A stretch of 64,000 bases of DNA, from NCBI GenBank assembly GCA_017935145.1, contig JAGBIE010000014.1, positions 71,047 through 135,046 of the forward strand, given 5' to 3'. This DNA is from Oscillospiraceae bacterium. GTDB lineage: Bacteria > Bacillota > Clostridia > Oscillospirales > Oscillospiraceae. Position 1 is the stretch's first letter. Every line of letters starts with the position of its first letter. Shown here one piece after another: positions 46,616 through 64,000 of the stretch. Under the pieces are notes generated by a model. The model was not told the origin of the DNA. It made no database searches and saw only the letters and a program-made list of their open reading frames with translations. Position numbers and translations under genes: made by a program.

Positions 46616-46691
46616 TTTTCTATTTTCGCCCGTGTATAATGATGACAATCATTTCTTTGGTATAAACCAAATTACAAAAAGGAGAATGATC

Positions 46692-47426
46692 ATGAAAAAA
46701 ATCGTTGCACTTATGCTGGCACTGGTTATGGTGTTTGCCCTGGTGGCTTGTGGCACCGAACCCAAGAAAGACATCCATGCAAAAGGCGAAGGCGTTATGA
46801 CTTATGCTCAGTATGAAGCTGCTGCCATGGACAGCGAAGTCGTGGTTGAAACCTTTGTGCAGGCTAAGCAGGGCTGGTGGGAAAAGGACGGCGTTGGCGT
46901 TGCTACCCTCTATACTCAGGATAAAGACGGCGCTTACTTCCTGTACAACATGCCTTGCTCCAAGGAAGACTATGACAAGATGGTCACTGGCACTAAGCTG
47001 AAGGTGACTGGCTTTAAGTCCACTTGGGATGGCGAAATCGAAATTATTGATGCTACTTACGAAATCCTGGAAGGTAACTATGTCGCAGAACCCATTGATG
47101 TGACTGATCTTCTGGGCAAGGCTGAACTGGAAAAGAAGATGAACATGTTCGCTTCTTTCAAGGGCTTGACCATTGAGGCTTCCAACGATGAAGGCGCTGC
47201 TTTCCTCTACAAGTGGAACGGCACTGGCCAGGATGGCGATGATCTGTATTTCAACGCTTCTCTGAATGGCGAAACCTACACTTTCTGCGTGGAATCCTAT
47301 CTGTGCGGCAAGGACACCGATGTCTACAAAGCTGTTAAGGCTTTGAAGGTTGGCGACAAGGTGGATATGGAAGGCTTCCTGTACTGGTACAACGGTGCAC
47401 AGCCCCACATCACTTCTGTAAAGTAA
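46692..47426 (+). CDS. hypothetical lipoprotein
   Basis: MKKIVALMLALVMVFALVAC lipobox after an AAGGAGA RBS. No recognisable domain. Confidence 0.65.
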   Translation: MKKIVALMLALVMVFALVACGTEPKKDIHAKGEGVMTYAQYEAAAMDSEVVVETFVQAKQGWWEKDGVGVATLYTQDKDGAYFLYNMPCSKEDYDKMVTGTKLKVTGFKSTWDGEIEIIDATYEILEGNYVAEPIDVTDLLGKAELEKKMNMFASFKGLTIEASNDEGAAFLYKWNGTGQDGDDLYFNASLNGETYTFCVESYLCGKDTDVYKAVKALKVGDKVDMEGFLYWYNGAQPHITSVK

Positions 47427-47437
47427 GAAAAACTTTT

Positions 47438-47473
47438 ACCCCCTTGGAGATATCTCCGAGGGGGTTATTTTTT
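47438..47473 (+). terminator. intrinsic terminator
   Basis: ACCCCCTTGGAGA / TCTCCGAGGGGGT stem followed by a T-tract. Confidence 0.85.
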
Positions 47474-47601
47474 CATCTATGTCGATATGGTGCATTATCG
47501 ACAAAAATCTCTTGCAAAGAAAGCGGAAATTTGGTATACTAAATCAAAGTGTGCACATTTTGGTGTGTACGATACTTTAATTCTGGGTGGAGGTTTCTGG
47601 C

Positions 47602-49588: not shown

Positions 49589-49631
49589 AAGCTTGCTGCC
49601 AACTAAATGTGGGCAGCAAGCTTACGTTTTT
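49589..49631 (+). terminator. intrinsic terminator
   Basis: 12-bp stem AAGCTTGCTGCC / GGCAGCAAGCTT followed by TTTTTT. Confidence 0.8.
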
Positions 49632-49915
49632 TACAAATTTTTTAATGTGTAAATTGCCGTATGTTATGTGATTCCTTGCAAAAAACGCATAATTTTTAAA
49701 AAAATTTACAATTATTTTTTTGGCTTAAAATGGCAAAACGCCAAATAGCTAGGAATTCCTTAAAAAATTGATATATATTTATAAGGATATATATCTATAT
49801 AGACGGATTGCCAAACGTATGGTAAATCTTGTACAATAAGTTGAATTAATGTATAGGTGGGGTTCTGTCTTTTGTAGAAAAGCCCTACAAGGAATACACG
49901 TTGTGAGGGAATAGC
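49632..49915 (+). promoter_or_regulatory. AT-rich intergenic control region with a candidate promoter
   Basis: By my own per-line count, about 20-35% G+C, against roughly half in the flanking genes. TTGCCA (49808-49813), 18 nt, TACAAT (49832-49837). Direct GATATATAT repeats lie near 49770-49795. Confidence 0.45.
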
Positions 49916-51508
49916 ATGAACGAACAAAACACGGAAAGAAGAGAAGTTGAAATTGATCTTCAGAGAATTTTCAAAGCGGTGTTACACCGGCTTTGGCTTT
50001 TGCTGCTTGTAGCGGTTTTTTGTGCAGTTGCAGCTTTCTTCTATACCAAGTCTACTGTTGTGCCCATGTATCAGTCCTCTGCGCTGTTCTATGTTAATAA
50101 CTCAGTGTTTGGTCAATCCGTTAGTATCAGCTATGCGGACCTGACTGCATCTAAGGGCTTGGTTGGTTCTTACATTGTAATTTTGAAGAGCCGTCCCACG
50201 TTGGAAGAAATTGCTGACTATGCCGATTCTCCCAGAAGTTCTGCTGAGTTGCGTGGCATGCTTTCTGCTTCTTCTGTGGATGATACAGAAATTTTCCGTG
50301 TCACTGTAACAAGTCAAGATCCTCAGGAAGCTGCCGATCTCGCAAATGCTGCGGCAGTGATACTACCCAAAAGGATCTCTAGTGTGATTGATGGCACATC
50401 CGCTAAGGTGATTGAAACGGCAGTGCCTGCTGGTAGTCCAAGTAATAACGACAGTTATACCACCAACGTGCTTCTAGCGTTCATGCTGGGCTTTGTGTTT
50501 GTAGCTGCAATTATTGCCATTCGCGAGATTTTTGATACAACCATTCGCACAGCAGAAGATATTAAGCAGGTCTGTGATCTGCCCATTCTTTCCGAAGTTC
50601 CTGATATTGGCAGTAGTGGCAAAGAAAATAGATACTATTATGATCGCGCTTATGCACCTCAGAAACAGCAGGAAAAGCCTCATGGCGCTGAAAAAGGGAA
50701 GATTGTACATGGTGTCATTGGTGATGACACGCCCTTTGTTGTATCTGAAGCTTACAAACTGCTTCGCACCAAGGTAGAATTCTCCTTTGCTGATGGTAAA
50801 AACAGCCATGTAATTGGCGTGTCTAGTGCTCTCTCCGGCGAAGGCAAGTCTGTTTCCTCGATTAACCTTGCTTATGCGCTGGCGCAGATGGACAAACGTG
50901 TTCTTTTGGTAGAATGTGACCTTCGCCGTCCGTCTATCTCCATGAAACTTGGACTTAATCGTATTCCTGGTCTTACCAACCTTCTGTCTCAGAAGATTAC
51001 CGCCAAGGAAATTGTGCAGGTCTGCGAACAGAAGAATGGTAATCCCATTCACGTGGTCACAGCTGGTCGTATTCCTCCCAACCCCATTGAACTTCTTGGT
51101 TCTGCAAAGATGAGTGAAATCTTGGATTCCTTCAAAGAATCTTACGATTACATCATCTTGGACCTGCCTCCTGTGCTGGAGGTCAGTGATGCATTGGTTA
51201 CTGCTAAGTTCGTGGATGGCATGCTGTTGGTTGTTCGCGAGAACTATTGCGACCGTACTGGTCTTTCTGCGACCATTCGCCAGTTCCAGTTTGTTGGCGC
51301 ACACCTCCTTGGCGTGCTGGTTAACTGCACTATAGATGATTTGAGAAGATATCCCAAGAGTTACGATGGTCACTACGGTCGTCATAAGTATGCAGGTGCC
51401 TACGCTAGTCGCAGTCGCGCATACCGCCGTTCCTATCGCAAGTATTCACAACCGCAGGAAGTAGAAATGGCGGAAGCAGAGGCCGAAAAGGAACAGGGTA
51501 AAAAGTGA
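49916..51508 (+). CDS. fused Wzz/CpsC chain-length-determinant domain plus BY-kinase (CpsD/CapB-like) tyrosine autokinase
   Basis: Two TM helices flank a periplasm-like domain. Walker A SGEGKS, A' LLVECDLRRP, B YDYIILDLPP. Tyr-rich tail YPKSYDGHYGRHKYAGAYASRSRAYRRSYRKY. Confidence 0.85.
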   Translation: MNEQNTERREVEIDLQRIFKAVLHRLWLLLLVAVFCAVAAFFYTKSTVVPMYQSSALFYVNNSVFGQSVSISYADLTASKGLVGSYIVILKSRPTLEEIADYADSPRSSAELRGMLSASSVDDTEIFRVTVTSQDPQEAADLANAAAVILPKRISSVIDGTSAKVIETAVPAGSPSNNDSYTTNVLLAFMLGFVFVAAIIAIREIFDTTIRTAEDIKQVCDLPILSEVPDIGSSGKENRYYYDRAYAPQKQQEKPHGAEKGKIVHGVIGDDTPFVVSEAYKLLRTKVEFSFADGKNSHVIGVSSALSGEGKSVSSINLAYALAQMDKRVLLVECDLRRPSISMKLGLNRIPGLTNLLSQKITAKEIVQVCEQKNGNPIHVVTAGRIPPNPIELLGSAKMSEILDSFKESYDYIILDLPPVLEVSDALVTAKFVDGMLLVVRENYCDRTGLSATIRQFQFVGAHLLGVLVNCTIDDLRRYPKSYDGHYGRHKYAGAYASRSRAYRRSYRKYSQPQEVEMAEAEAEKEQGKK

Positions 51509-52224
51509 AATACACCGGTCTAACTGATGTACATTGTCATGTGCTTCCCAACATGGACGATGGAAGTCGTAGTGTGGAAGAATCGATTGGCATATTGAAG
51601 ACAGAAACGGCTCAGGGGATAACCCGCGTGATTGCAACCCCTCATTTCTATGCCGATCGTGATACTCTGCAGTGCTTCATAGCACGGCGACACGAAGCAG
51701 AGCTCGTTCTTAGACAGGAGATGACGCTCCACTCTGATATGCCGGAGCTATTTCTTGGGGCAGAGGTTCTGTTCTTCCATGGCATAAGCAATTGGGAAGG
51801 ATTGGAAGAACTCACATTAAATAAAAGTGGCTATCTACTTTTGGAAATGCCCTTTGTTGAGTGGACCGATGTGTTGCTGGATGAAGTGGAAGAGATTTCT
51901 GTAAAACACGGAATCACCCCCGTTCTTGCCCATGTGGAACGCTATTTGTACCTATTCAATGCCAAACGCGTTTTAGACGATTTGCGCCGGCGTTCTATTA
52001 TGATTCAGTGTAACGCGGATTTCTTCCTTCAGCGAAACACCGCTCGCACAGCACTGAAATATCTACGCGAAAACAGAATACATTTTATGGGCAGTGATTC
52101 CCATAATATGGGACGTCGCAAACCTAACATAGGAGATGCGACAGAGATTATCCTCGCCAAGCAGGGGAGTGCCCCGCTGGAGCGCCTGTCACAAATGGCG
52201 GAGTTCCTGTTTGACGAACAATAA
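51505..52224 (+). CDS. cpsB: PHP-family protein-tyrosine phosphatase (CpsB/CapC-like)
   Basis: GTGA overlap with the kinase stop. DVHCHVLPNMDDGS, ATPHF and SDSHN motifs. Confidence 0.85.
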   Translation: MKYTGLTDVHCHVLPNMDDGSRSVEESIGILKTETAQGITRVIATPHFYADRDTLQCFIARRHEAELVLRQEMTLHSDMPELFLGAEVLFFHGISNWEGLEELTLNKSGYLLLEMPFVEWTDVLLDEVEEISVKHGITPVLAHVERYLYLFNAKRVLDDLRRRSIMIQCNADFFLQRNTARTALKYLRENRIHFMGSDSHNMGRRKPNIGDATEIILAKQGSAPLERLSQMAEFLFDEQ

Positions 52225-52289
52225 CCCAGTTATATTTTCCCTTCGGGGATGTATATAAGCATAATGAAAAAATGGAGTTGAATGTTGCA

Positions 52290-53030
52290 ATGAAAAAAGT
52301 AGTCACAATTCTTGTCGTGCTGCTGTTGTGCATTTCCCTCATGGCTCCGGCATTTGCCGCCGGTGAGGATTTTGTGCGCAGCATCTCTTACAAGGATGGT
52401 CCTCAGACGGTACCTGTTACAACTGTGGATAACAAAGTTGTAGTTGCCGTCTTGGTGAAATCGGGTGAAGATGACGTGCCTGTTTATAAGGACCAGTTGG
52501 TCATCACCCCCATCTCTGCCGTGGATGAAGCAACGAAAGTGCCCGCAGAAGTTATCGATACTCTGAAAAAAGCGTATGATGGCTTGAACAAGGGAACTAC
52601 AAAGCTTCCTTTTGAAGAATACGGCAACGATGCCCCCAAGTCGCCTGTAGTTCGCGATATCTTTGATGCTACTTTGATCCACGATGATCACGTTAAATAC
52701 TTAGCAAACGAAGATGTCCATATTGAATTGACCTTCCGCCTTGGCGTGGATGCTGATGTACAGGTCTATGCCATGTCTTACCTCGATGGCCAGTGGGATC
52801 CCGCAAAGGATACTGTTAACAATGGTGATGGTACTGTAACCATTTCCCTTGATCACCTTTGCCCCATTGTTTTTGCTGTGGAAGCAGAGGATCTGCATGC
52901 ATCCCAGTTGCCCGAGAAGAAGGAAGACAGCAACCTGATGCTGTGGGTCATCCTTTTGGTGATCTGCGCTGTGTGCATTGTTGTTCTTTCTATTGTTGCC
53001 TCTAAGAAGAAAAAGAAGAAAGCTGAATAA
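52290..53030 (+). CDS. hypothetical secreted protein with C-terminal TM anchor and poly-Lys tail
   Basis: Signal peptide MKKVVTILVVLLLCISLMAPAFA. C-terminal LMLWVILLVICAVCIVVLSIVA followed by SKKKKKKAE. An alternative ATG lies at 52272. Confidence 0.6.
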   Translation: MKKVVTILVVLLLCISLMAPAFAAGEDFVRSISYKDGPQTVPVTTVDNKVVVAVLVKSGEDDVPVYKDQLVITPISAVDEATKVPAEVIDTLKKAYDGLNKGTTKLPFEEYGNDAPKSPVVRDIFDATLIHDDHVKYLANEDVHIELTFRLGVDADVQVYAMSYLDGQWDPAKDTVNNGDGTVTISLDHLCPIVFAVEAEDLHASQLPEKKEDSNLMLWVILLVICAVCIVVLSIVASKKKKKKAE

Positions 53031-53056
53031 GACATTTGAATGGATTGGATTGAATC

Positions 53057-54040
53057 ATGAAGATTAGAATTCCGCGCCGTGGCTTTTTGCTAATGTGCGC
53101 TGTACTGATTCTTCTGGTGGTCATGGTCCTCTGTGTGGCACAGATTTTGAAAAGTGTAACCCCAGGTGGCGTGGCACCAGAAACTGATTATGCATCCAAA
53201 ACCATTATTCGTGACGGCGTTCCTTATTTTCCTCGGCAGGATATCACAGTTATGCTAGTCATTGGCATTGACCGCTTTGGTGCAATGCAGGGGAGTGAAT
53301 ACTCCTCCAATAAAGGTGACGCAGACATGGTATCACTTTTGGTTTTTGACGAGCAGGATAAAACCATTGATATTTTGGCACTGAACCGTGATACCATGGT
53401 GAAAATGCCTGTTTTGGGTTTGGGAGGAAAACCTGCTGGTTCGCGCTATGCACAGCTGACCTTGTCGCATACCTATGGTAGTGGCCTGCATGACAGCTGT
53501 GAAAATGTGCGAAAAACGGTTTCGGACCTGTTTAATGGTTTGCGGATTGATTATTATCTTTCCATGAACATGGACGCTATTTCTCGCCTTAATGACGCAG
53601 TTGGCGGTGTAACTGTTCATGTTACGGAAGACCTCTCCTCCGTAGATCCTACAATTTCCATGGGCGAACAGACACTCAACGGCACACAGGCTGTGAATTA
53701 TGTGCGCGCTCGTAAGGAAGTAGGCAACCAGCTTAATACATCCCGCATGGAACGTCAGAGTAAATATATGAAAGGTTTTCTGAATGCTGTGTGGTCAACC
53801 TTGGATGAAAGCGAAACTTTTATCTATTCGGTTTATGAAGATGTAGATGATTACATCGTGACGGACTGCACACTGGCATCTCTCAGTTCCTTACTTACTC
53901 GCTATCGGGAATATACCCTTAACGATGTTATTACGCTCAAGGGTGAAAATGTCCTGAACGATTCCTATATGGAGTTCCATCTTGATAAAGAAGCGTTAGA
54001 TCAACTAATGCTCGAACTCTTCTATAGCGAAAAATCTTAA
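53057..54040 (+). CDS. LCP (LytR-CpsA-Psr) family glycopolymer ligase
   Basis: N-terminal TM helix. MLVIGIDR...GDADMVSLLVFDEQDKTIDILALNRDT...IDYYLSMNMDAISRLNDAVGGVTV. Confidence 0.85.
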   Translation: MKIRIPRRGFLLMCAVLILLVVMVLCVAQILKSVTPGGVAPETDYASKTIIRDGVPYFPRQDITVMLVIGIDRFGAMQGSEYSSNKGDADMVSLLVFDEQDKTIDILALNRDTMVKMPVLGLGGKPAGSRYAQLTLSHTYGSGLHDSCENVRKTVSDLFNGLRIDYYLSMNMDAISRLNDAVGGVTVHVTEDLSSVDPTISMGEQTLNGTQAVNYVRARKEVGNQLNTSRMERQSKYMKGFLNAVWSTLDESETFIYSVYEDVDDYIVTDCTLASLSSLLTRYREYTLNDVITLKGENVLNDSYMEFHLDKEALDQLMLELFYSEKS

Positions 54041-54226
54041 AACTTCACTCCAAAATATATATTTAGACTTTGGGCGCCCAAAGTCATGCTCTGCTTGAAA
54101 CAGAGCATGATAGTTGCCTGTCCCCGCCAGCATCCGCAGAAATGCGGGCAGGGGAGAACAACTCCCGCACTAACGGTTTCGACCGAAACGATAGCAAAGA
54201 ATTTCTTTGAGAAAGGGTGTATCCTC
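54041..54226 (+). promoter_or_regulatory. highly structured 186-nt spacer/leader upstream of the giant gene
   Basis: 20-nt perfect palindrome 54066-54085. 9-bp hairpin 54085-54109. GAAA-tetraloop hairpin within 54121-54155, with competing GGGAG/CTCCC pairing at 54152-54166. Hairpin 54076..54089-like GTTTC/GAAAC at 54176-54189. None is followed by a T-tract. Confidence 0.5.
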
Positions 54227-57200
54227 TTGAGAAAAGCGCTTTTCCTGGTCCTCACTCTGGTAACAATTGTTGCCTGCCTCACTGGCCTTGCCATGGCAGT
54301 AGACAAGCCCACCACTGTTGAGGAATCTGCTGCTACTTGGAAAGCAGTGGAAAACACTAGTGGTACTGTATCCTATTTTGCTGCGCTGAATAACAGTGTT
54401 GCAAGCTGGGCAGTAGAAGTTGACGGTGGTGTAACCTTCACCTTGTTGGAGGACTTCACTGGCAACGCCTATGTAGAATTCCCCAACACTTGGGTCGTTG
54501 AAAATCATCCCATTGTTTTGGATCTCAATGGCCATTGCATTACCAATACTGGCACAAGTCAGGCATTCTTGCTGAAGGGCCATGGTGATCTGACCATTAA
54601 GAATGGTACTATCGTCCAGAACATTACTGCCCGTGCCATCGGCATTGGTTACAGCAGTAGCTATTTGACTGATACCAACGGCGATTACTACAAGGGCATT
54701 GTGACTTTGGAAAACATGTTCCTGTATGGTCCTAAGACCGATGCCAATGGTGGTATCATTGAGTCTAAATATAAACTGGTTGATCTTACTCTGAACAACT
54801 CTTATATTTGGTCTTCTTATAAGTCTACGAATCATCCTGAAGGTTACGGTGTGATTCAGTTTGACAATGCGGAAACGCTCAACGTTACCGTAAACAACTC
54901 TGTCATTGGCGGTACCAATGGTGCCTTCCGTCAGGCTTCTGGCGTGATGAATCTCACCTTTAACAATGCGGTAATTGTAAACAATTTCTATTCCCGTGTT
55001 GCTTTCGGTGGCGGTACTACCTATATCAATGGTGATACCAGCAAGAACTCCAATGGTCCATACGTTTACTGTTGGAGTACTGCGCCCACCGCTACCCGTG
55101 CAGATGATGACAAGGACGTTCTTCTGCCCAATGGTGTTAAGATTGTTGCTGCTACCGAAGGCGAAAACTTCCGTTCCGCAGTCTGGGGTACAGCAACTAC
55201 GTCCGCTGCTCCTGCTACCACTACTGCTGATGCAGCAACTTACATGGCAGTTAGCTCTGCAGGTACTGTGTATTTTGAAAATTTCACTACCGATGTTGCA
55301 AACTGGGCATCCACAGTGCCCGGCGGTGTGACTTTCTACCTGTTGAAGGATGCTACTCACTCTAATGCAGTAGTCTTCCCCTCCACTTGGATGATGGAAA
55401 ACCCCGTCACCTTGGATCTCAATGGTCACACCCTGACCAGCGATGCCAGCCAAGCTGACTTCTCTTTGTATGGCGATGGCGTTTTCACTGTGCAGAATGG
55501 TGTTTACAAGCACAATGGCAGTGGTCAGATGTTCACTGTCGGTGGTACTAGTGCCAGCACAGCGGCTAAAGACGGCACATTGATGAATATTGTTACTGTG
55601 AATGTTAGAAATGCATTCCTGCACCATACTAAAGAAGGCGCTGCATATAGTGACCTGGTTCTTTGGTCCGTTTATAACAGACCCGTTGTGAACGTAGAGA
55701 ACTCTGTGATTTGGTCTGAGACCAACGCATTTGGTTGCAACATGCGTTTTGAGCAGCTGGTTTGGCTCAATTTCAATGTGAAAGACTCCATCATTGGTAA
55801 CAGCGGTGATTCTACCTCTGGTATTATCTCTCAGGCAAAACCCGCCAACTCCGCTGCGGATTTTGTTATGAATGGCGTCCTCACCTTTGAGAACTCCGTG
55901 ATTGCTACCTCTGACGGCACCTTACAGCGTGCTGGTTGGCGTGTGAATGTCAACGGCTTCCAGTGGGGTGCAGGTCAAGATCCCGTCGATATGACTTTGG
56001 CAGGCGGTACTCTTTTGGATGCTTGGTCTGGCACTGCCCCCGATGGCACTGCTATTTCCAACCTGAAGGCACAAAGCTTTGGTGATGCCCCTGTAGTCAC
56101 GCTGAATAGCAATGTCATCTTTAAGATGGCTGATGGTCAGTTCATCTCTGCTGTGGAAGCTCCTGTTGGTAGCACTGTTACTGTGTCTGCTTCCGATATC
56201 GCAGTAGGGGAGGGACAGGTTGCTGGCTGGAACACCATGGCTAATGGTAGTGGCGTGTCCTATATTGCTGGCGACAATGTTGCTGTTGGCACTACGCTGT
56301 ACCCCTGCGCTGTGGATGTTCGCACCATCACCTTTGAAACCGCTGGTGGCACAGCAGTGGATGCTATCGTCAAAAAGGTTGGCGACGCTGTAATTGCTCC
56401 CGCTAACCCCACTAAGACTGGTTATCAGTTTGCAGGTTGGGACGTAGATGTTCCCGCTGTCATGCCTGCAGAAAATATGACCATTACTGCTTCTTGGTCT
56501 CCCATTAACTACACCGTAGAATTCAACGCCAACGGTGGTGACGGCGAAGTTCCCAATTCCCTGTACATGACCTATGATATTGCAGATGAACTGCCCGATA
56601 CAGTGCTGACCATGGATCGTAAGCTCTTCGCAGGCTGGAACACTGCTGCAGACGGCAATGGTGAATCCTATGCAGTTGGTGACTCTGTCAACAATTTGAC
56701 CGATGTCAATGGCGATGTTGTCACACTCTACGCTGTTTGGATTGACGATCCCACTGCGGATGCTCCCACTTCTTGCGACAAGACTGTTGCAAACTTCAAG
56801 TTGACCGTTCCCGTAGTTCCCGGCAAGGTCTTCTACTATGAAACTCTTTCTGCTGACGTCATCAACTGGGCTGTTACCGTTGGTGGTGGCGTGAAAATTG
56901 AAGCTCTGAGAAATGTTTCCCTTGCTGAAACTGTCGTATTCCCCGCAGACTGGAATGGCGCTAACCCCATTGTCATCGATCTGAATGGTACCACCATTAG
57001 CAATGGTGCTGCCAACACCATGTTCCTGCTCAATGGTAATGGCTCCTTGACAATCAAAAATGGTTATGTGAAGAACAATCAGGCGACTGTGACATTCACC
57101 CTTGGCGTGAGTGGCACTCAGCAGGATGGCACCGGCGCATACTATCATCCCGCTCTGACCTTTGAAAATGCTGTAGTTGTTCACGAAGCAGGTAGTGCTG

Positions 57201-60200
57201 CTACCATTTACAACTATCTCGCAGGTGCTGATATTACCATGAACAACAGTATCCTGTGGACTTCCAAGGCTGCTAATTACAACCTTGCTACTATCGTGGC
57301 TGTGAACAACCTTGGTTCTGGAGCTGGTATTACCTCCACAGATAGAACCACCTTGGTTCGTTTGACTGACTCTATTTGCGGTGGTGCATACAGCCGTGTC
57401 ATTCATGCAAACACCTCTGGCTTCGCAGGCCGTATTGAAATTCATGCGGATAACTCTGCCTTTGTTACTGCTAAGCTTGGCGATCCTTATATGAACATGG
57501 CTGTCGGCGGTATTATCGCCCGTAACACCAACTTTATCTTCCTCAATGGCAAGCAGGTTGACACTAGCAAGGGTTGGGAGTTTAACGGTGACCATGCTCC
57601 CTTTGCTGAATTGGGCAATGTTGAAGTGGTTGATGACTGGGCAGGCACCTTGCCTGATGGCACTGCCATTGCAGGTACTGCAACCACTGTTGGCACTTCT
57701 GTGACTACCACGAATATTGCCTACACCGTGATTTACGATGCAAACGGTGGCGAAGGCACTGTGGCTTCCACCAACGGTTTGAACTCTGTCGCTGTTGCTG
57801 CAGATGGCGCTGCTCTTGCTCCTTCTGGCAAGGTCTTCAAAGAATGGAACACCCATGCCGATGGTACTGGCACTTCCTATGCTGCCGGCGAAAATGTGCC
57901 TCATGGTGGCGTGCTGTACGCACAGTATGAAGTAGATTACAGCTCTGTTGCTCCTACTCAGAGCGGCAGCGTTTACAACGCTTCCTTCATGATTAAGCCT
58001 GCTGGCTCTACGCAGGAACTTTACTACGATGCCTTGACCGCTGAAGTGGTCAACTGGATGATCACTGTTCCTGGTGGTGTTGAGGTCAAGGTGCTGAAAG
58101 AGGTCTCTTTGACAGCATCTGTCACATTCCCCACTAGCTGGGATAAGGCCAACCCCGTTGTGATTGATTTGAATGGTCATACCATTACCAACGCTTCTGG
58201 TGCGGCTATGTTCCAGGTTCTCGGCAACGGTACCTTGACAATCAAAAATGGTTATGTGAAGAACCTCCAGAACGCACAGATGATTACCTTGGGTGCTGCA
58301 CCTGTTGAAGCTGTTGTGGCTGGTACTGCATTTGCATCTCAGTTGGATGGCAGTGGCGTACCCTACAAGCCCTATGTGAACATTACCAACGCAGTGTTCT
58401 ACTCTGAAGCAGTGGGTAGCAGTGTTCCCATTATCTACAACTACCAGGCTGGTGCAGATATTAACCTGACCAACAGTATTCTGTGGCTTGCTAAGGTTCA
58501 GGTCTACAACGAAGGCGTTATCATGTGCATGAATAACGTTGGCTCTACTAATGCTCCCAATGGTGCTGACAGAACTACCTTCATTCGCTTGAACTCCTCT
58601 GTTTTGGGTGGCGCACACAGCCGTGCAATTCAGGCAATGAATGGCGGATATTATGGCCGTGTTGAAATTCATGCCTATAGTGCAGCCTTTGTTACTGCCA
58701 AGAATGGCGCTCCCTATCAGAACATGGGTGATGCCGTTGGTATGATTGAACGTGGTGCTTCTTGGGTTTTCATTAAAACTTCCAAAACTGGCAACTCCTA
58801 TAAGCAGATTACAGACATGAGTACAAAGCTGAATGCTGCGCATCCCGAAGTTGCAGAAATTGGTGGCGTTGTGGTTACCGATTGGGCTGGCACTCTGCCC
58901 GATGGCACTGCCATTACTGGTTCTGCTTCCGTCTTTGACGGTGGTGTGACCTCCGTTAATGTTCCCTACGTTGTGACCTATGATGCCAATGGTGGCACGG
59001 GCACTGTTGCTCCCACCAACGGCAATAACATGGTTGCAACTGCAGCTTCTGCTGATGGTCTTACCAATGGTGATTTGGCCTTCCGTACTTGGAACACCAA
59101 GCCCGATGGTACTGGCGTTAACTACAGAGTTGGCGCAAATGTGCCTTATGGTGTAACGCTCTATGCAATCTGGGGCGATGATTTCCTGTCTAGCGCACCT
59201 GCTCAGGTTCCCGAAGCTGTTGCAAACTACAAGATTACCCTGAACGATACCCTTATCAGTGCTGTTCCTTTCTACTACGCAGAGCTGACTGAAGATGTCA
59301 TCAACTGGGTTGTGAGCGTTGACGGTGGTGCTACCATCACTATGCTCCGCGATCAGACCATCTCTAAGGAAATTGCATTCCCCTTTGGCTGGGATGCTTC
59401 CAACCCCATTGTCTTCGACTTGGGCAACAACACCTTGACCAACAATAACGCTAGCGAGAAGAGCTGGTCCTTCTTGGTCTATGGTAATGGTGATCTGACC
59501 ATTAAGAATGGTACTATGCACCAGATCAACAGCGCTCACGCTGTGAACTTGGGTCGTTACAGTAATCAGACAACTGATGCTGAAGGCAATCCCTACAGCG
59601 CAAAGCTGACCATGGAAAACGTATTCGTTTACGGCTCCAAGGTTGACTCCAACGTTCCTCTGATTGAAACCAAGTTCAATAATATTGAAATCGTACTGAT
59701 CAATTCTATCGTTTGGTCCGCTAACAGAGATACCACTGGCGGTCATGGCGCTATCACCTTTGATAATGGTGTGAACCTGACTATGACCATGGAAGGCTCC
59801 GTTATTGCTGGCGCAAACCGTGGTATTAAACCCTCTGGTAACCTTGATCTGACCATCAGCAACTCTGCTGTTGTTGGTCTGGTTGGCACTAGCGGTGTTG
59901 CTGGTGCTAACGGCGCAACCGTTTCCATCAATGGTACTGAAGGCATGAACTGGAAGTTTGGTACTGATGCAGGCGGTGTCAAGAAGGATCCTTGGGCCAC
60001 AGTGCTTCCCAACGGTGTTGCAGTTTCTGGTATTGCAACCGTTTACGGTACTGTACCCAACGCTTCTCCCGAAACTGTTCCCGCAGCCAATGCTGCTATC
60101 AGTGCTGTAACTGCAACTGGTAACACGGTCTACTTCGCTGGTTTGGATACCAACGTTGCTACTTGGGCAGCATCTGTTCCCGGTGGCGTAACGCTCACCC

Positions 60201-62536
60201 TGTTGAAAGACATCGAACTGTCTTCTCAGGTAAGCTTCAACGGCATGAGCGCAGATAGTCCTGTTGTGATTGACCTGAACGGCTTCACCATGACTCACAC
60301 TGCTTCTGGTATCGGCATCTACACTGGCGGTACTCCCGACCTTACTGTTAAGAACGGTACCTATATCAGCAACGGCGGCATCCGTGCCTTCTGCATCGGC
60401 GGTTCTCAGACTACAGATTCTGCTAAGCTTACTCTGGAGAATGCCTTTGTTTATGGTCCCGTGACGAATACCAATCAGCCCCTTATTGACATCTACTACA
60501 CGGATATTACCTTGAATATCCTCAACTCTGTTGTTTGGTCCGCCAACACAGAAACCGGTGGCGGTCAGGGTAGTATCACCTTTGGTTACGCAACTACTGC
60601 TGCAGTCACTTTGGAGAACTCCATCGTAAACGGTCCCAACCGAGCCTTTAGAATTACCACTGGTACCACGAATCTTACTGTGACCGATTCTGCAATTGTG
60701 ACCCTTGCTAGCGGCAATCAATATGTCGTTGGTGGTAATGGTTCTATTAGCATCAATGGCGGCAACACTTTGACTTGGCCTCTGTTTAGTCAGGCTGGTG
60801 CTACCTCCATCGTCAGCCCCTGGAATGCAACCCTGCCCAACGGTGTTGAGGTCACTGGTCATGCGGCAATCTTCGGTTCTGCTCCCTCTGGCGCATTGCA
60901 GACCAATCCCGTTGCAACAGTTGGCGGTGTTGAATACAACACTCTTGCTGCTGCAATCGCTGCTGCAGAGGAGAATGCTGTAATTACTCTTCTGCGCAAT
61001 GCTGAAGGCGGTCCTGTCTCCCTTGAAAAGTCCCTGACCTTGGACTTCGGTGGCTATACCTACTCGGTAACCACTCCTGAGGAAGGCGTTTACAGCGCCA
61101 TGACCATTGCCGAAGGCGTAACGGTCACCTTGAGAAATGGTACCTTGGAAGTCGGTTCGGCGTACAAGGCATACTACGATGTGCTGGTGGATAACCTGGG
61201 TGCAGACCTGACCATCACTGACATGACTCTGGATGGCACCAACCTTGACCTCTTGGTTGGCACTACCACTGATGATTCCTATGTCCTTGCCAATGCTGGT
61301 GGCACGGTACTGATTTCCGGCGAAACCTACATTCTGGCAAATGACGAAGGTACTGGCTATGCATTTGACGTGTGCGGTACTGCCAATGTCACTGTTAACA
61401 CCACTGGTTATATTGATGGTTACATTGTTGTGGCTGACACTGCAAAGCTCACCATCAACTCTGGCTCCTACAGCAAGATTCCCAATGCTAAGTGGCTGCC
61501 CGCAGGTAAGGTTCCCGTCTCCAATGCAGATGGTAGCTTCTCCATGATGGACGGCGTCATAAAGAATACAATGTTCTCCTTGTCGCTGGAAGATTGGGTA
61601 CATGTAAACTTGTACACCATCTTCGAAGGTTATGCTGAAAGCTTTGTGGAAGACAATGGCGGTATGCTGGTATGGCACTCCGATGTGATGCCTGGTGATG
61701 CATTCTACGCCAATGCTGACTATGTGAGCGAAGCTCTCTACGCATCCACTAGCGCAGCTCGTGGTTACGGCGGTCAGTCCGACGGTATTCCCGTTGCTGA
61801 ATATGGTGACACCATTTACATGCGTGCTTACCTGAAACTGGCTGACGGCAACTACACCTACGGTCCTCTGGTTCAGTACAGCGTGCGTCAGTACTGCTTG
61901 AGCAGATTGGCCAACTCCACCTCTGCCGCAACTAAGGACGTTTGCGCTGCCATGCTGAACTACGGCGCTGCAGCACAGACCTACTTCAATGTAAACATCG
62001 ACAATCTGGCTAACGCTGGCGTTTCTCACAGCCTGAACGCTTGGAGCGATTCTCTCCTGACCGCTCTGGAGCCTGTGAACAGCAGTCTTGTTGCTGACGC
62101 CAAGGTTTCTGTGCTTGGTAAGTCCTTGTCCTTGAACGAAAAGGTCTATGCAAACTTCTACTATGATTACCTTGGCGCGGAAACCATCGAAACCGCATCC
62201 TTGCTGGTTTGGGACGGTGTCACTGAACAGCTGACTACCGAAAATGTTTCCTACACGGTTGACATGGAATCTCTGGTGGATGAAGAGACCGAAAACGTCT
62301 ACTACGGCGGTCAGTCTGAAGGCTTTATCTCCACTGAGTATGGCAAGACCATCTTTGTGTGCGCTAAGTTCACCGATTCTGAAGGTGTTGATCACTACAG
62401 TGAAGTGACAGCCTACAGCCCCGAAGCTTGGGCATCCAACAGACTGAACAGCGACGGCGTAACTGATGTTGAAACCGCACTCTGCAAGGCTCTTGTTCAG
62501 TATGGTGACTACGCAATCAAACTGTTCAGCAACTGA
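54227..62536 (+). CDS. giant secreted modular surface protein (about 2,769 aa)
   Basis: The likely start is TTG 54227, which places the signal peptide LRKALFLVLTLVTIVACLTGLAMA at the N-terminus. The ORF track ATG 54086 lies inside a hairpin. Contains seven related modules, three Listeria-Bacteroides-type repeat blocks and a duplicated C-terminal domain. No LPXTG, SLH or C-terminal TM anchor seen. Confidence 0.85.
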   Translation: MRKALFLVLTLVTIVACLTGLAMAVDKPTTVEESAATWKAVENTSGTVSYFAALNNSVASWAVEVDGGVTFTLLEDFTGNAYVEFPNTWVVENHPIVLDLNGHCITNTGTSQAFLLKGHGDLTIKNGTIVQNITARAIGIGYSSSYLTDTNGDYYKGIVTLENMFLYGPKTDANGGIIESKYKLVDLTLNNSYIWSSYKSTNHPEGYGVIQFDNAETLNVTVNNSVIGGTNGAFRQASGVMNLTFNNAVIVNNFYSRVAFGGGTTYINGDTSKNSNGPYVYCWSTAPTATRADDDKDVLLPNGVKIVAATEGENFRSAVWGTATTSAAPATTTADAATYMAVSSAGTVYFENFTTDVANWASTVPGGVTFYLLKDATHSNAVVFPSTWMMENPVTLDLNGHTLTSDASQADFSLYGDGVFTVQNGVYKHNGSGQMFTVGGTSASTAAKDGTLMNIVTVNVRNAFLHHTKEGAAYSDLVLWSVYNRPVVNVENSVIWSETNAFGCNMRFEQLVWLNFNVKDSIIGNSGDSTSGIISQAKPANSAADFVMNGVLTFENSVIATSDGTLQRAGWRVNVNGFQWGAGQDPVDMTLAGGTLLDAWSGTAPDGTAISNLKAQSFGDAPVVTLNSNVIFKMADGQFISAVEAPVGSTVTVSASDIAVGEGQVAGWNTMANGSGVSYIAGDNVAVGTTLYPCAVDVRTITFETAGGTAVDAIVKKVGDAVIAPANPTKTGYQFAGWDVDVPAVMPAENMTITASWSPINYTVEFNANGGDGEVPNSLYMTYDIADELPDTVLTMDRKLFAGWNTAADGNGESYAVGDSVNNLTDVNGDVVTLYAVWIDDPTADAPTSCDKTVANFKLTVPVVPGKVFYYETLSADVINWAVTVGGGVKIEALRNVSLAETVVFPADWNGANPIVIDLNGTTISNGAANTMFLLNGNGSLTIKNGYVKNNQATVTFTLGVSGTQQDGTGAYYHPALTFENAVVVHEAGSAATIYNYLAGADITMNNSILWTSKAANYNLATIVAVNNLGSGAGITSTDRTTLVRLTDSICGGAYSRVIHANTSGFAGRIEIHADNSAFVTAKLGDPYMNMAVGGIIARNTNFIFLNGKQVDTSKGWEFNGDHAPFAELGNVEVVDDWAGTLPDGTAIAGTATTVGTSVTTTNIAYTVIYDANGGEGTVASTNGLNSVAVAADGAALAPSGKVFKEWNTHADGTGTSYAAGENVPHGGVLYAQYEVDYSSVAPTQSGSVYNASFMIKPAGSTQELYYDALTAEVVNWMITVPGGVEVKVLKEVSLTASVTFPTSWDKANPVVIDLNGHTITNASGAAMFQVLGNGTLTIKNGYVKNLQNAQMITLGAAPVEAVVAGTAFASQLDGSGVPYKPYVNITNAVFYSEAVGSSVPIIYNYQAGADINLTNSILWLAKVQVYNEGVIMCMNNVGSTNAPNGADRTTFIRLNSSVLGGAHSRAIQAMNGGYYGRVEIHAYSAAFVTAKNGAPYQNMGDAVGMIERGASWVFIKTSKTGNSYKQITDMSTKLNAAHPEVAEIGGVVVTDWAGTLPDGTAITGSASVFDGGVTSVNVPYVVTYDANGGTGTVAPTNGNNMVATAASADGLTNGDLAFRTWNTKPDGTGVNYRVGANVPYGVTLYAIWGDDFLSSAPAQVPEAVANYKITLNDTLISAVPFYYAELTEDVINWVVSVDGGATITMLRDQTISKEIAFPFGWDASNPIVFDLGNNTLTNNNASEKSWSFLVYGNGDLTIKNGTMHQINSAHAVNLGRYSNQTTDAEGNPYSAKLTMENVFVYGSKVDSNVPLIETKFNNIEIVLINSIVWSANRDTTGGHGAITFDNGVNLTMTMEGSVIAGANRGIKPSGNLDLTISNSAVVGLVGTSGVAGANGATVSINGTEGMNWKFGTDAGGVKKDPWATVLPNGVAVSGIATVYGTVPNASPETVPAANAAISAVTATGNTVYFAGLDTNVATWAASVPGGVTLTLLKDIELSSQVSFNGMSADSPVVIDLNGFTMTHTASGIGIYTGGTPDLTVKNGTYISNGGIRAFCIGGSQTTDSAKLTLENAFVYGPVTNTNQPLIDIYYTDITLNILNSVVWSANTETGGGQGSITFGYATTAAVTLENSIVNGPNRAFRITTGTTNLTVTDSAIVTLASGNQYVVGGNGSISINGGNTLTWPLFSQAGATSIVSPWNATLPNGVEVTGHAAIFGSAPSGALQTNPVATVGGVEYNTLAAAIAAAEENAVITLLRNAEGGPVSLEKSLTLDFGGYTYSVTTPEEGVYSAMTIAEGVTVTLRNGTLEVGSAYKAYYDVLVDNLGADLTITDMTLDGTNLDLLVGTTTDDSYVLANAGGTVLISGETYILANDEGTGYAFDVCGTANVTVNTTGYIDGYIVVADTAKLTINSGSYSKIPNAKWLPAGKVPVSNADGSFSMMDGVIKNTMFSLSLEDWVHVNLYTIFEGYAESFVEDNGGMLVWHSDVMPGDAFYANADYVSEALYASTSAARGYGGQSDGIPVAEYGDTIYMRAYLKLADGNYTYGPLVQYSVRQYCLSRLANSTSAATKDVCAAMLNYGAAAQTYFNVNIDNLANAGVSHSLNAWSDSLLTALEPVNSSLVADAKVSVLGKSLSLNEKVYANFYYDYLGAETIETASLLVWDGVTEQLTTENVSYTVDMESLVDEETENVYYGGQSEGFISTEYGKTIFVCAKFTDSEGVDHYSEVTAYSPEAWASNRLNSDGVTDVETALCKALVQYGDYAIKLFSN
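56318..56740 (+). repeat. Listeria-Bacteroides (Flg_new-type) repeat block 1 (two units)
   Basis: ITFETAGGT...GYQFAGWD...ITASW, then YTVEFNANGGDG...FAGWNTAADGNG...VTLYAVW. Confidence 0.75.
57045..57076 (+). repeat. 32-nt exact DNA repeat, copy 1 (module 3)
   Basis: CCTTGACAATCAAAAATGGTTATGTGAAGAAC is identical to 58233-58264. Confidence 0.9.
57722..57928 (+). repeat. Listeria-Bacteroides repeat block 2
   Basis: YTVIYDANGGEG...FKEWNTHADGTGTSY...VLYAQY. Confidence 0.75.
58233..58264 (+). repeat. 32-nt exact DNA repeat, copy 2 (module 4)
   Basis: Identical to 57045-57076. Both encode LTIKNGYVKN. Confidence 0.9.
58967..59173 (+). repeat. Listeria-Bacteroides repeat block 3
   Basis: YVVTYDANGGTG...FRTWNTKPDGTGVNY...VTLYAIW. 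Confidence 0.75.
61571..62533 (+). repeat. tandem duplicated C-terminal domain of the giant protein (two units of about 150 aa)
   Basis: Unit a: FSLSLEDWVHVNLY...LVWHSDV...YGGQSDGIPVAEYGDTIYMRAY...NYGAAAQTYF. Unit b: KSLSLNEKVYANFYY...LLVWDGV...YYGGQSEGFISTEYGKTIFVCAKF...QYGDYAIKLF. Confidence 0.7.
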
Positions 62537-62559
62537 TTCGGATTGTGAGGTGTAATATC

Positions 62560-62697
62560 ATGAAAATTTTTGAAACTCCTAACATGGAAATTCAGAAGTT
62601 TGTTGTAGAGGACATCATGGATGGTTCCGGTGTTTTCGATAACGAAACAGAAGGTGACCTCATTCCCGATGGCCTGGAACTTGGTTTGAACGACTAA
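62560..62697 (+). CDS. 45-aa highly acidic peptide ORF
   Basis: GTGAGGTG RBS-like element 7 nt upstream. Product: MKIFETPNMEIQKFVVEDIMDGSGVFDNETEGDLIPDGLELGLND (12 D/E, 2 K). Lies 23 nt after the giant gene stop. Below the ORF-track cutoff. Confidence 0.45.
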   Translation: MKIFETPNMEIQKFVVEDIMDGSGVFDNETEGDLIPDGLELGLND

Positions 62698-62703
62698 ATG
62701 AAA

Positions 62704-62734
62704 ATTTCCCCGGGCGGTCTCCGCCCGGGGAAAT
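62704..62734. other. perfect 14-bp GC-rich hairpin after the peptide ORF
   Basis: ATTTCCCCGGGCGG TCT CCGCCCGGGGAAAT. There is an A-tract on the 5' side and no T-tract on the 3' side of the plus strand. Confidence 0.7.
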
Positions 62735-62760
62735 CTCCCATCTAGAAAGGAAAGGCGATT

Positions 62761-63546
62761 ATGCATAAATCCAAATGTCTACCTCGCATTTTTGCAATTG
62801 TTTTGGCGGTTTGTTCTTTGGCTTCTGTGCTGATCACCGCATCTGCTGCAAATCCTTTTAATGATATCAGTGCAGCGGATTACTTTTATGATGCCGTCTT
62901 GTGGGCTGTAGATAAGAATATTACCAATGGTGTTGGCGACGGTCAATTTGCTCCCTTAAAGACTTGTACTCGCGCTGAAGCTGTCACATTTTTGTGGCGT
63001 GCCATGGGCAGACCTGCACCTAAAGCAACATCCTGCGCGTTTACTGATGTGGTGAAAGATTCGTACTACTACAGTGCGCTACTATGGGCTGTTGAGAATA
63101 AGATTACCACTGGCACATCTGCAACAACCTTTGCGCCCGATATGACATTGACACGTGAACAGTTCGTTACGCTTTTGTGGCGCACAGCTGGATCACCTGT
63201 AGAAAGTGCAAAGACGAATTTTACTGATGTTCCGGATGATGCATATTATGCTACTGCTGTACAGTGGGCAGTTGCTAAGAAAATCACCCAAGGTGTGGGG
63301 GATAACATGTTTGGCCCGCGCAGAGACTGCACAAGAAGTCAAATCGCGACTCTCCTCCTGCGCGTTTCTGAAAATACAAACATTATGCCCGAGAACCCTT
63401 CTTATCCTCAGGACCCTGTGTACCCAGATGTTCCTCAAACACCGACTACCCCCGAAACACCCAGTGAACCGACAGATCCTAATAAGCCTGCTGTAAATCC
63501 CTCTGTTGGCGTAGGCGGGAAATACGAGACAAACTGGGATGTTTAA
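62761..63546 (+). CDS. secreted protein consisting of three SLH domains and a Pro-rich tail
   Basis: Signal peptide ending ASA. Three repeats: F(N/T)D(I/V)...YY..A(V/L).WAV...IT.G......F.P....TR.(E/Q). Then the PENPSYPQDPVYPDVPQTPTTPETPSEPTDPNKP tail. Confidence 0.8.
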   Translation: MHKSKCLPRIFAIVLAVCSLASVLITASAANPFNDISAADYFYDAVLWAVDKNITNGVGDGQFAPLKTCTRAEAVTFLWRAMGRPAPKATSCAFTDVVKDSYYYSALLWAVENKITTGTSATTFAPDMTLTREQFVTLLWRTAGSPVESAKTNFTDVPDDAYYATAVQWAVAKKITQGVGDNMFGPRRDCTRSQIATLLLRVSENTNIMPENPSYPQDPVYPDVPQTPTTPETPSEPTDPNKPAVNPSVGVGGKYETNWDV

Positions 63547-63584
63547 CACAAAACGACCGGAGCAATCCATATGTCGCCCAGACT

Positions 63585-63647
63585 CCGGTCTGGGGCAAGG
63601 GTTTTGTTTTTAGAACCTTTGCCCAAGACCGGAGTTGTTTCCTTTTT
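63585..63647 (+). terminator. 17-bp hairpin plus T-rich tail (terminator or attenuator) after the SLH gene
   Basis: CCGGTCTGGGGCAAGGG (63585-63601) pairs with CCTTTGCCCAAGACCGG (63616-63632) with one mismatch. GTTGTTTCCTTTTT follows. Confidence 0.55.
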
Positions 63648-63656
63648 GGAGGTTTT

Positions 63657-64000
63657 ATGAAACAGACTTATCGCATCGCTGGTCTCGTTGTTGAGATGGA
63701 TACTTTTGGCAGAACGGAACAACAGGCGAAACCGTATATGTGTGAATACACCACACCTGACATGACGATTTCTGCAGATTGGCGTGCATATCAGCAAATC
63801 CATCCGCATCTTTCTGCGGAAGAATGCGAATATATTCTAACTGGTGCCACTTTCTATAAAAGACTCATTCAAAACAACGGCATTATGCTCCATGCCTCAG
63901 CTGTGGTTGTAGATGGTCAAGCCTATTTATTTTCCGCTCCTAGCGGTACGGGAAAATCAACCCACACTCGATTGTGGCTGAAAAAGTTTGGAGAACGTGC
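63657..64000 (+). CDS. HPr-kinase-like P-loop protein, 3'-truncated by window edge
   Basis: GGAGG RBS. Open frame runs to the window end. LHASAVVVDGQAYLFSAPSGTGKSTHTRLW resembles the HprK C-terminal P-loop (hG..v...G.gvLi.G.SG.GKS). Confidence 0.6.
   Translation, partial: MKQTYRIAGLVVEMDTFGRTEQQAKPYMCEYTTPDMTISADWRAYQQIHPHLSAEECEYILTGATFYKRLIQNNGIMLHASAVVVDGQAYLFSAPSGTGKSTHTRLWLKKFGER

Follow-up and report, generated by a model that had tools for sequence, protein, structure and literature searches.

A putative portable wall-polymer cassette linked to a giant surface protein gene in a sublineage of Oscillospiraceae

A stretch of 64,000 nucleotides from an Oscillospiraceae bacterium (GenBank assembly GCA_017935145.1, contig JAGBIE010000014.1, positions 71,047 to 135,046 of the forward strand; hereafter the window, with positions counted from its first nucleotide) carries, near its 3' end, four genes of the kind that regulate and attach capsular and wall polysaccharides. 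They are followed by an 8.3-kb gene for a giant secreted protein, a short peptide gene and a gene for a protein made of S-layer homology (SLH) domains. A previous description, made from the letters of the window alone (the sequence-only reading), had presented these genes as a capsule-type regulatory module wired to the giant gene instead of to glycosyltransferases, and its gene list was recovered in full, gene for gene. The features of the locus are the following.

47587..49548 (+), CapD-like membrane-bound UDP-sugar 4,6-dehydratase/epimerase (Polysacc_synt_2; PF02719, E=1e-112)
49589..49632 (+), intrinsic terminator after capD, a 12-bp GC-rich stem followed by a T-run (from fold and sequence)
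49808..49837 (+), candidate cassette promoter of sigma-70-like type, TTGCCA-18-TACAAT (10 of 12 positions; a match to the consensus only)
49916..51508 (+), fused Wzz/polysaccharide co-polymerase (PCP) and bacterial tyrosine kinase (BY-kinase), CpsC/CpsD-like, with a Tyr-rich tail (PF02706, PF13614, TIGR01007)
51505..52224 (+), CpsB-type PHP phosphotyrosine phosphatase (CpsB_CapC; PF19567, 148 bits against a cutoff of 27, E=3e-43)
52290..53030 (+), third cassette gene, for protein X of 246 aa (homology across nine of nine distinct cassette loci)
53057..54040 (+), LytR-CpsA-Psr (LCP) ligase of glycopolymers to peptidoglycan, with an N-terminal transmembrane segment (PF03816, TIGR00350)
54041..54226 (+), structured spacer of 186 nt, the probable 5' leader of the giant gene (from alignment, fold and conservation)
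54227..62536 (+), giant secreted protein of 2769 aa (open reading frame (ORF), signal peptide, modules, Flg_new repeats)
62560..62697 (+), ORF for an acidic peptide of 45 aa that resembles precursors of peptides that are made by ribosomes and then post-translationally modified (RiPPs) (from its relatives; good ribosome-binding site (RBS))
62706..62732 (+), 12-bp GC hairpin after the peptide ORF, no U-run (dG -30.8 kcal/mol, z=-4.1)
62761..63546 (+), SLH-only protein of 261 aa with a signal peptide, three SLH domains and a Pro-rich tail of ~60 aa (PF00395)
63581..63649 (+), strong intrinsic terminator, a 25-bp stem and UUGUUUCCUUUUU (dG -51.8 kcal/mol, z=-6.6)
63657..64000 (+), 5' part of a ScmC-like gene (HPr-kinase-related P-loop), which continues in other assemblies

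The first cassette gene encodes an activator and a kinase in one chain. Its kinase part is a P-loop BY-kinase, matching PF13614 and TIGR01007 (148.8 bits, cutoff 108) and carrying the Walker A, A' and B motifs ALSGEGKS, VECDLR and YIILDLPP, with eight tyrosines among the last 60 residues. The Wzz domain (PF02706, E=4e-13) is of the Wzz/PCP2b kind and comes with hydrophobic, putatively transmembrane segments at about aa 18-49 and 181-207; the score against TIGR01006 was 130 bits, below the cutoff of 296. The start codon of the phosphatase gene overlaps the kinase stop codon in a GTGA, which was verified, and the product shows the HCH..DDG signature of CpsB enzymes (HCHVLPNMDDG). Protein X is composed of a signal peptide, an extracytoplasmic domain of ~190 aa, a C-terminal transmembrane segment and a basic poly-Lys tail. 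It matched nothing in Pfam, NCBIfam or the PDB (the last queried by single sequence and by profile), and a search of viral contigs with the family alignment returned nothing. The fourth product is an LCP enzyme according to PF03816 (94.9 bits, E=7e-27) and TIGR00350 (85.3 bits, cutoff 62.3), and within NCBIfam it scores best with TagU, LytR and CpsA.

Fused Wzz/BY-kinase relatives of the window kinase number in the thousands (~2,700 homologs). We examined the genomic contexts of seven of them and of one further locus, L052, which was obtained from a look-up of the ScmC-like gene; with the window, these make nine distinct loci. A kinase search of genome contigs added only two distant Bacteroidetes P-loop matches, which provided no synteny information. 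The order kinase, CpsB, a protein of ~240-260 aa (protein X) and an LCP of 327-330 aa was found in all nine loci, at kinase identities of 50-100%, and across them protein X retains its topology and the invariant motifs FV(P/R)SI(S/T)xK and NNGDGTVT at 36-71% identity. The surroundings of the cassette are variable. In L018 it is followed by a classical block (DegT, Bac_transf, PglD, GT1, epimerase, GT2 and EpsG), and this is the only relative in which the cassette heads a block of glycosyltransferase (GT) genes in the classical manner. Upstream of the cassette lie four GT1 genes, Wzy_C and a flippase in L015, and a flippase with LicD or epimerase genes in L013 and L016, while L017 and L052 have no GT genes within 10 kb. 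Moreover, five of the six distant loci (L013 and L015-L018) have a canonical terminator, a GC hairpin with a T-run, no more than ~25 nt after the LCP stop codon, and it is present even where GT genes come next. The variable flanks and this terminator identify kinase-CpsB-X-LCP as a self-contained and portable operon of four genes, and the premise that such a cassette should head a GT block therefore fails. On the same comparison, standing without adjoining GT genes is not anomalous by itself in this family. "Instead of glycosyltransferases" was thus an over-reading, since GT blocks are found upstream, downstream or not at all among the relatives, and the alternative offered at the time, that the polymer genes lie elsewhere, has become the better-supported half of that inference.

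The same four activities are encoded by cpsABCD of Streptococcus pneumoniae (wzg-wzh-wzd-wze) and by capABC together with LcpC in Staphylococcus aureus. In comparison with these systems, the window cassette has the reverse gene order (CD-B-X-A), a fused activator and kinase, and an extra protein, X. The family to which it belongs appears portable, carries its own terminator and does not necessarily head a GT/Wzx/Wzy block, and in the window no polymer genes adjoin the cassette. Specifically, the 64 kb are free of Wzx, Wzy and GT-A/B genes throughout. Other assemblies of the organism, with identical proteins, continue for ~2.9 kb further (L001:10897-13969), as far as an ABC exporter, and neither the remainder of the window downstream of the cassette nor these ~2.9 kb contain a GT, Wzx or Wzy gene, which agrees with the earlier statement that no sugar transferase, flippase or polymerase follows. 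This extension, which had been suggested as a check, revealed ScmC, PqqD, peptidase and ABC genes. No GT/Wzx/Wzy block is present from 31.5 kb to ~66.9 kb (window-equivalent coordinates), and the 47 kb upstream of the cassette contain no GT, Wzx or Wzy gene except a Glycos_transf_4 of WecA/TagO/MraY type at 892-1989, which may be the transferase that initiates a wall polymer. The capD-like gene had been placed upstream, behind its own terminator and an AT-rich gap. The terminator at 49589-49632 was confirmed, and capD accordingly appears to be a separate transcription unit; the promoter-like site at 49808-49837 lies inside the AT-rich gap.

In the window and in two relatives, L010 and L011, the cassette is followed by a giant gene. 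L010 (kinase identity 87%) is syntenic with the window upstream from polC onward, and L011 (60%) has a different upstream context. In both, an ORF starts 189-193 nt after the LCP gene, with an N-terminus that is 60% (L010) and 41% (L011) identical to that of the window giant and collinear with it. Both ORFs contain the same repeat modules, the one in L011 spanning at least 1904 aa up to the contig end. The order LCP, ~190-nt spacer and homologous giant is therefore conserved in all three, and the wiring of the cassette to the giant gene has been borne out as a genomic link within one sublineage. Judged from these alignments, the physical link is real and conserved, and the post-LCP terminator is missing in the window sublineage. 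The first strong terminator downstream of the cassette lies after the SLH gene (63581-63649) and is the probable end of the transcription unit.

The spacer is more conserved than the sequences around it. Its nucleotide identity is 84% to L010 and 70% to L011, above that of the flanking proteins (against L011, LCP and giant are 64% and 38.5% identical in amino acids), and the gap between capD and the kinase is only 44% identical to its L010 counterpart. Its elements are a palindrome TTTGGGCGCCCAAA, a hairpin CATGCTCTG..CAGAGCATG and additional hairpins, which are kept in the window, L010 and L011, and a 20-nt RBS block TTTGAGAAAGGGTGTATCCT at its end that is identical across the three lineages. 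The first 140 nt fold better than shuffled sequences (z=-3.8), and both spacer motifs are unique within the window. Neither a terminator-like nor a sigma-70-like site was found in the spacer, and an Rfam search of 46-64 kb at E<=1 returned no family for it. A search of metagenome contigs with the motif GGGCGCCCNNNNTCATGCTCTG gave 29 matches, all of them due to chance: most were in high-GC organisms, and none was accompanied by the hairpin partner or the RBS block.

The giant gene most plausibly starts at the TTG at 54227, as indicated by the RBS GAAAGGG before it and the signal-peptide-like segment after it; the same start was called in other assemblies. The protein contains six paralogous beta-helix-like modules of ~300 aa (about aa 44-330, 344-640, 859-1170, 1256-1580, 1661-1945 and 1962-2258), interspersed with Flg_new repeats. 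The modules are 28-50% identical to each other, with 24 invariant columns and the signature DLNG..T..NG in each, and they are followed by a beta-rich region (~aa 2260-2440) and a tandem domain (2440-2592 and 2627-2769). An AlphaFold2 (AF2) model of a module, built from the internal-repeat alignment, is all-beta (pTM 0.85, pLDDT 79). All 50 listed Foldseek matches to this model were of the beta-helix type and non-significant (E>=0.05, TM<=0.44); they included the AlgE4 A-module, PL6 and PL3 lyases, GH28, phage depolymerases and the serine-rich repeat protein (SRRP) of Lactobacillus reuteri. The model makes it likely that the modules belong to the right-handed beta-helix fold class, family membership not being established. 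The closest known proteins are the SRRP binding region and the A/R epimerases of the AlgE type, the likeness being that the repeated ~300-aa modules of the giant, predicted with good confidence to be all-beta, have beta-helix proteins as their best structural neighbours. However, neither matches it significantly in sequence or structure, and the giant differs in that its modules alternate with Flg_new repeats and precede a distinct, uncharacterised C-terminal tandem domain. The giant had no match among the Pfam beta-helix families or in a PDB sequence search. LPXTG, SLH domains and transmembrane or second hydrophobic segments are all missing from it, leaving neither a sortase nor an SLH anchor, and Thr, Ser and Asn together make up 26% of its residues.

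No full-length homolog of the giant was found among 5.8 billion clustered proteins, and no other match spans more than 31% of it. When the window is compared with L010, identity is 86-97% for housekeeping genes, 71-88% for cassette genes and 60% for the N-terminus of the giant; the giant is the fastest-diverging gene of the locus (60% versus 71-97% elsewhere). This gradient from housekeeping genes over the cassette to the giant fits an exposed, diversifying surface protein. Its C-terminal tandem domain (window 61544-62533, aa 2440-2769) consists of copies of ~145 aa with the signature YxGQSxGI...YS...YG.AAQ and is found again at the C-terminal ends of giants that differ otherwise (P0004, P0017, P0018 and L051). 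It has no relative in Pfam or in the PDB (searched by profile), and an AF2 run with its two internal copies gave no usable fold (pLDDT 39). Two long antisense ORFs, at 55922-62395 (-, 2157 aa) and 54170-55627 (-, 485 aa), were rejected as shadow ORFs because the plus frame carries the Flg_new matches, the signal peptide and the homologs; they were treated as products of the biased and repetitive composition of the giant gene. Other giant ORFs (1819-3529 aa) were observed in distant relatives, upstream of polysaccharide genes or of the cassette (L013:1-7411, L015:1-153, L016:1-4254 and L052:1-722), several of them with a NAGPA phosphodiester-glycosidase domain. Giant surface proteins thus recur around cassette loci, in varying positions.

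The 45-aa peptide ORF starts 23 nt after the giant stop codon. Its family has a conserved N-terminus of 24 residues (MKxFE[TS]Pxhxh.xFVVED[IV]..[GT]SG) and a hypervariable acidic C-terminus, as seen in the window (MKIFETPNMEIQKFVVEDIMDGSG...), in the relatives P0261 (MKVFETPNMEIQKFVVEDIMTGSG...) and P0262 (MKKFETPEIEVQKFVVEDVMSGSG...), and in a 34-aa relative at L051:9556-9660 (MKKFESPELNVETFVVEDIITTSG...). By its sequence, this would be the leader/core layout typical of RiPP precursors, and the segment F-E-[TS]-P-x-h recalls the lasso leader motif YxxPxL. The hairpin that follows (62706-62732) is not a canonical terminator, as it has no U-run. Next comes the SLH-only protein, which matched PF00395 in three stretches (E=2e-34). 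A second SLH protein in the window combines phage lysozyme with SLH (6494-7783), which indicates that the organism uses SLH-based wall display more widely.

After the SLH gene, the window end cuts off a RiPP-like cassette, whose products are the ScmC-like protein of 230 aa, a PqqD-family RiPP recognition element (RRE) of 87 aa, a 148-aa peptidase of the S24/S26-like kind and a 554-aa ABC exporter. The PqqD protein is an RRE (B1) by PF05402 (60.8 bits), and its best NCBIfam model is lasso_PqqD_Bac at 32 bits (cutoff 80). The ScmC-like protein reaches only 36.6 bits with TIGR04249 (cutoff 125), has a precomputed match to PF27840 and found no match in a PDB sequence search. Its family has more than 7,000 members (~7,200 homologs), and in one distant locus, from a search of viral contigs, it is paired with an S24-like peptidase even at 37% identity. 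Two further loci bear on this neighbourhood. In L051 (GCA_965338185.1, 1-10966) a giant of 4489 aa, which has only the C-terminal domain in common with the window giant and is otherwise unrelated to it, is followed by a homologous peptide, a terminator, ScmC and PqqD, with sugar-transport genes on the opposite strand directly after PqqD. In L052 (Oscillospiraceae metagenome-assembled genome GCA_965332605.1, 5910-10699) the ScmC-like gene lies 55 nt after the LCP gene of the four-gene cassette, and the stem of the hairpin between them (CCCCGGGCG/CGCCCGGGG) is near-identical to that after the window peptide ORF. This layout suggests that the giant-peptide-SLH block of the window sits between genes that adjoin elsewhere.

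An HPrK-related P-loop protein, a PqqD RRE, an ABC exporter and a leader-bearing short peptide are also the components of paeninodin-type lasso clusters of Firmicutes (PMC7533575). In contrast to those clusters, the window has no lasso cyclase and no B2 protease, with an S24/S26-like peptidase instead, and its peptide lacks the penultimate-Thr leader signature and is encoded after the giant rather than with the enzymes. Neither a lasso cyclase nor a B2 transglutaminase protease was found up to the ABC exporter, and no radical SAM gene, as would be expected of SynChlorMet (ScmA-F), in the window extension, L051 or L052. The locus therefore belongs to neither the lasso nor the SynChlorMet systems, and the recurrent neighbourhood of cassette, giant, peptide and ScmC-PqqD is an association without a described function.

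With regard to the remaining neighbours, the window contains spo0A, polC and a pyrH-frr-uppS-cdsA-dxr-rseP-ispG block. All called genes from 31.5 kb to the window end are on the + strand, so co-directionality by itself is weak evidence. An ORF of 248-264 aa without a Pfam match lies at 46632-47426, between a sugar ABC transporter and capD; it is 92% conserved in L010 and has a strong terminator on its 3' side (47438-47465). In L011, the region before the cassette (L011:2-3335) encodes a UDP-GlcNAc 2-epimerase, an NTP_transf_5 nucleotidyltransferase and an APH-family phosphotransferase; nucleotidyltransferases of this general kind are known from Firmicute lasso clusters.

The explanation that we favour, and to which we give about an even chance, is that a cassette for wall-polymer attachment is expressed together with surface proteins that need the polymer, the polymer genes being elsewhere. 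Arranged as CD-B-X-A, kinase, phosphatase, protein X and LCP correspond in Oscillospiraceae to the streptococcal cpsABCD genes. Judging from their families, they would control how a Wzy-type wall glycopolymer is polymerised and exported, and would ligate it to peptidoglycan, with the GT, flippase and polymerase genes at another site of the genome. In the window sublineage, the conserved structured leader of ~190 nt has replaced the post-LCP terminator and joins the cassette to the surface-protein block. Transcription from the promoter near 49.8 kb probably runs on across the giant, peptide and SLH genes as far as the terminator at 63.6 kb, and the leader may serve to process or stabilise the 8.3-kb message or to control its translation. 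The proposed connection is co-expression and not direct modification: the LCP would install the wall polymer bound by SLH domains, the SLH-only protein would sit on that polymer, and the giant, which lacks an anchor, would be held on display at the surface, perhaps by the SLH-only protein or by its own conserved C-terminal tandem domain. The giant would evolve fast because it is exposed.

What is known of SLH domains is compatible with such an arrangement, as their triplets bind pyruvylated wall polymers containing N-acetylmannosamine (ManNAc) and LCP enzymes attach such polymers (PMC7831098, PMC6030368). Polymer-linked genes do occur near the cassettes, namely capD directly upstream in the window and the UDP-GlcNAc 2-epimerase upstream in L011. 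The display systems of Bacillus anthracis and Paenibacillus alvei, which involve SLH proteins, a secondary cell wall polymer (SCWP) and LCP enzymes (PMC7831098, PMC6030368), resemble the locus in that the window likewise co-encodes an LCP and an SLH protein, and in that a ManNAc-forming epimerase adjoins the cassette in L011. On the other hand, neither a csaB pyruvyltransferase gene nor genes for SCWP synthesis were seen at the window locus, and the giant has no SLH domains, these being found in a separate SLH-only protein instead. To our knowledge, control by a BY-kinase is not a described feature of SCWP loci.

Several observations weigh against the co-expression of cassette and surface proteins. 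The spacer comparison comprises three sequences and shows almost no covariation (2 of 42 pairs), and the giant is paired with the cassette in only three of the nine distinct loci, all close relatives. A non-sigma-70 promoter could lie in the conserved 5' stretch of the spacer (CTTTCACTCCAA...TATAWAW), which would make the giant block independent. A population variant from a metagenome assembly (L007, ERZ28654132) differs from the window at three positions in 19.8 kb (53376, 53285 and 49739), two of which fall within the LCP gene, and one of these, T53376A, turns Leu107 into a stop codon. The giant, peptide and SLH genes of this variant are identical to those of the window. Either a natural loss of LCP function or a mistake in the assembly could account for the stop codon; taken as it stands, the giant block has been kept, at least transiently, without an intact LCP. 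Lastly, the LCP gene of L052 is directly followed by ScmC, which suggests that the giant block may be an insertion between them. An alternative that we regard as unlikely but serious is adjacency without coupling: the giant-peptide-SLH block would have been inserted in this lineage only and be driven by a non-sigma-70 promoter of its own in the spacer, and the cassette would have nothing to do with it. The near match of the hairpin stems in L052 and the window favours it, as do the terminated cassettes with unrelated neighbours elsewhere, the lack of a full-length homolog for a giant that evolves much faster than the cassette, and the coexistence of a nonsense LCP with an intact giant gene. 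However, the spacer has neither a sigma-70-like promoter nor a terminator, and arrangement and spacer persist down to 60% kinase identity, which is unexpected for a neutral insertion junction. Rather unlikely, and compatible with the favoured explanation, is that giant, peptide and ScmC/PqqD, with the peptidase and the ABC exporter, form a RiPP-like or peptide-signalling unit to which the cassette is a mere neighbour. L051 argues for such a unit, since there a giant sharing only the C-terminal domain precedes a homologous peptide, ScmC and PqqD. So do the conserved-leader/variable-core peptide family with its lasso-like motif, the best scores of PqqD with lasso-type RRE models and the pairing of ScmC with an S24-like peptidase at distant identity. 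Nevertheless, a canonical terminator separates the peptide from ScmC in L051 and a terminator the SLH gene from ScmC in the window, ScmC of L052 has no peptide, PqqD or adjacent giant, no core-modifying enzyme (lasso cyclase or radical SAM) was seen in the window extension or L051, and examples of the order giant-peptide-ScmC number only two.

The remaining alternatives give the giant a closer relation to the machinery or to the polymer. The sequence-only reading had proposed that the kinase/LCP machinery may act on the giant, and this finds no support here, the giant being limited to one sublineage, without a full-length homolog, and intact beside the nonsense LCP of L007. In its specific form, in which the BY-kinase/LCP machinery acts directly on the giant by LCP-mediated glycan transfer onto the protein or by wall linkage, we consider it very unlikely. 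A precedent exists in LcpA of Actinomyces oris, an LCP enzyme that glycosylates the surface protein GspA and whose gene, as in the window, is associated with that of a large secreted surface protein (PMC7831098). Tight gene linkage without a terminator, and a giant rich in Thr, Ser and Asn with no anchor of its own, would also fit. However, GspA is an LPXTG-anchored protein and the giant is not, most relatives of the cassette lack a giant (in six of the nine distinct loci none is found downstream, the cassette standing beside ordinary polysaccharide genes), and no feature of the LCP sets it apart from glycopolymer ligases. We hold it to be highly improbable, too, that the giant works as a secreted enzyme of several modules with activity on polysaccharides (an epimerase like AlgE, a lyase or a depolymerase) and remodels the polymer of the cassette. 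The all-beta module model, with carbohydrate-active right-handed beta-helices as every top Foldseek match, points in that direction, and the alternation of beta-helix and small repeats recalls the A and R modules of AlgE enzymes. Against it, all structural matches are non-significant, the giant has no CAZy-type Pfam match, the residues invariant over six modules (Gly, Asn and Trp) look structural and not catalytic, and the match is just as good to beta-helix adhesins such as the L. reuteri SRRP. A dedicated display system for giants, in which the leader joins cassette and giant while the C-terminal domain, the peptide and ScmC/PqqD tether, modify or export giant surface proteins by a mechanism not described before, seems improbable. 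Under it, the LCP might act directly on the protein, by analogy with LcpA and GspA of A. oris, or else a peptide partner of the giant might be the substrate of an RRE-guided enzyme.

Oscillospiraceae are abundant and largely uncultured, and we are aware of almost nothing on how they construct their surface. New here are the organisation of the cassette including protein X, the giant block joined by a leader, and the previously undescribed association of peptide, ScmC and PqqD. The capsule-type regulator and ligase genes of Oscillospiraceae come as a portable cassette of four genes with an uncharacterised fifth activity, protein X, and because the cassette appears portable, genome annotation should not expect polymer genes to adjoin it. 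In one sublineage, a constrained noncoding leader joins this cassette to a rapidly diversifying giant, which offers a concrete and testable case of surface proteins being co-expressed with a wall polymer. Coupling by transcription alone would be a modest refinement of known biology; if it proves true that the LCP or ScmC/PqqD acts on the giant, it would represent a new mode of surface-protein maturation.

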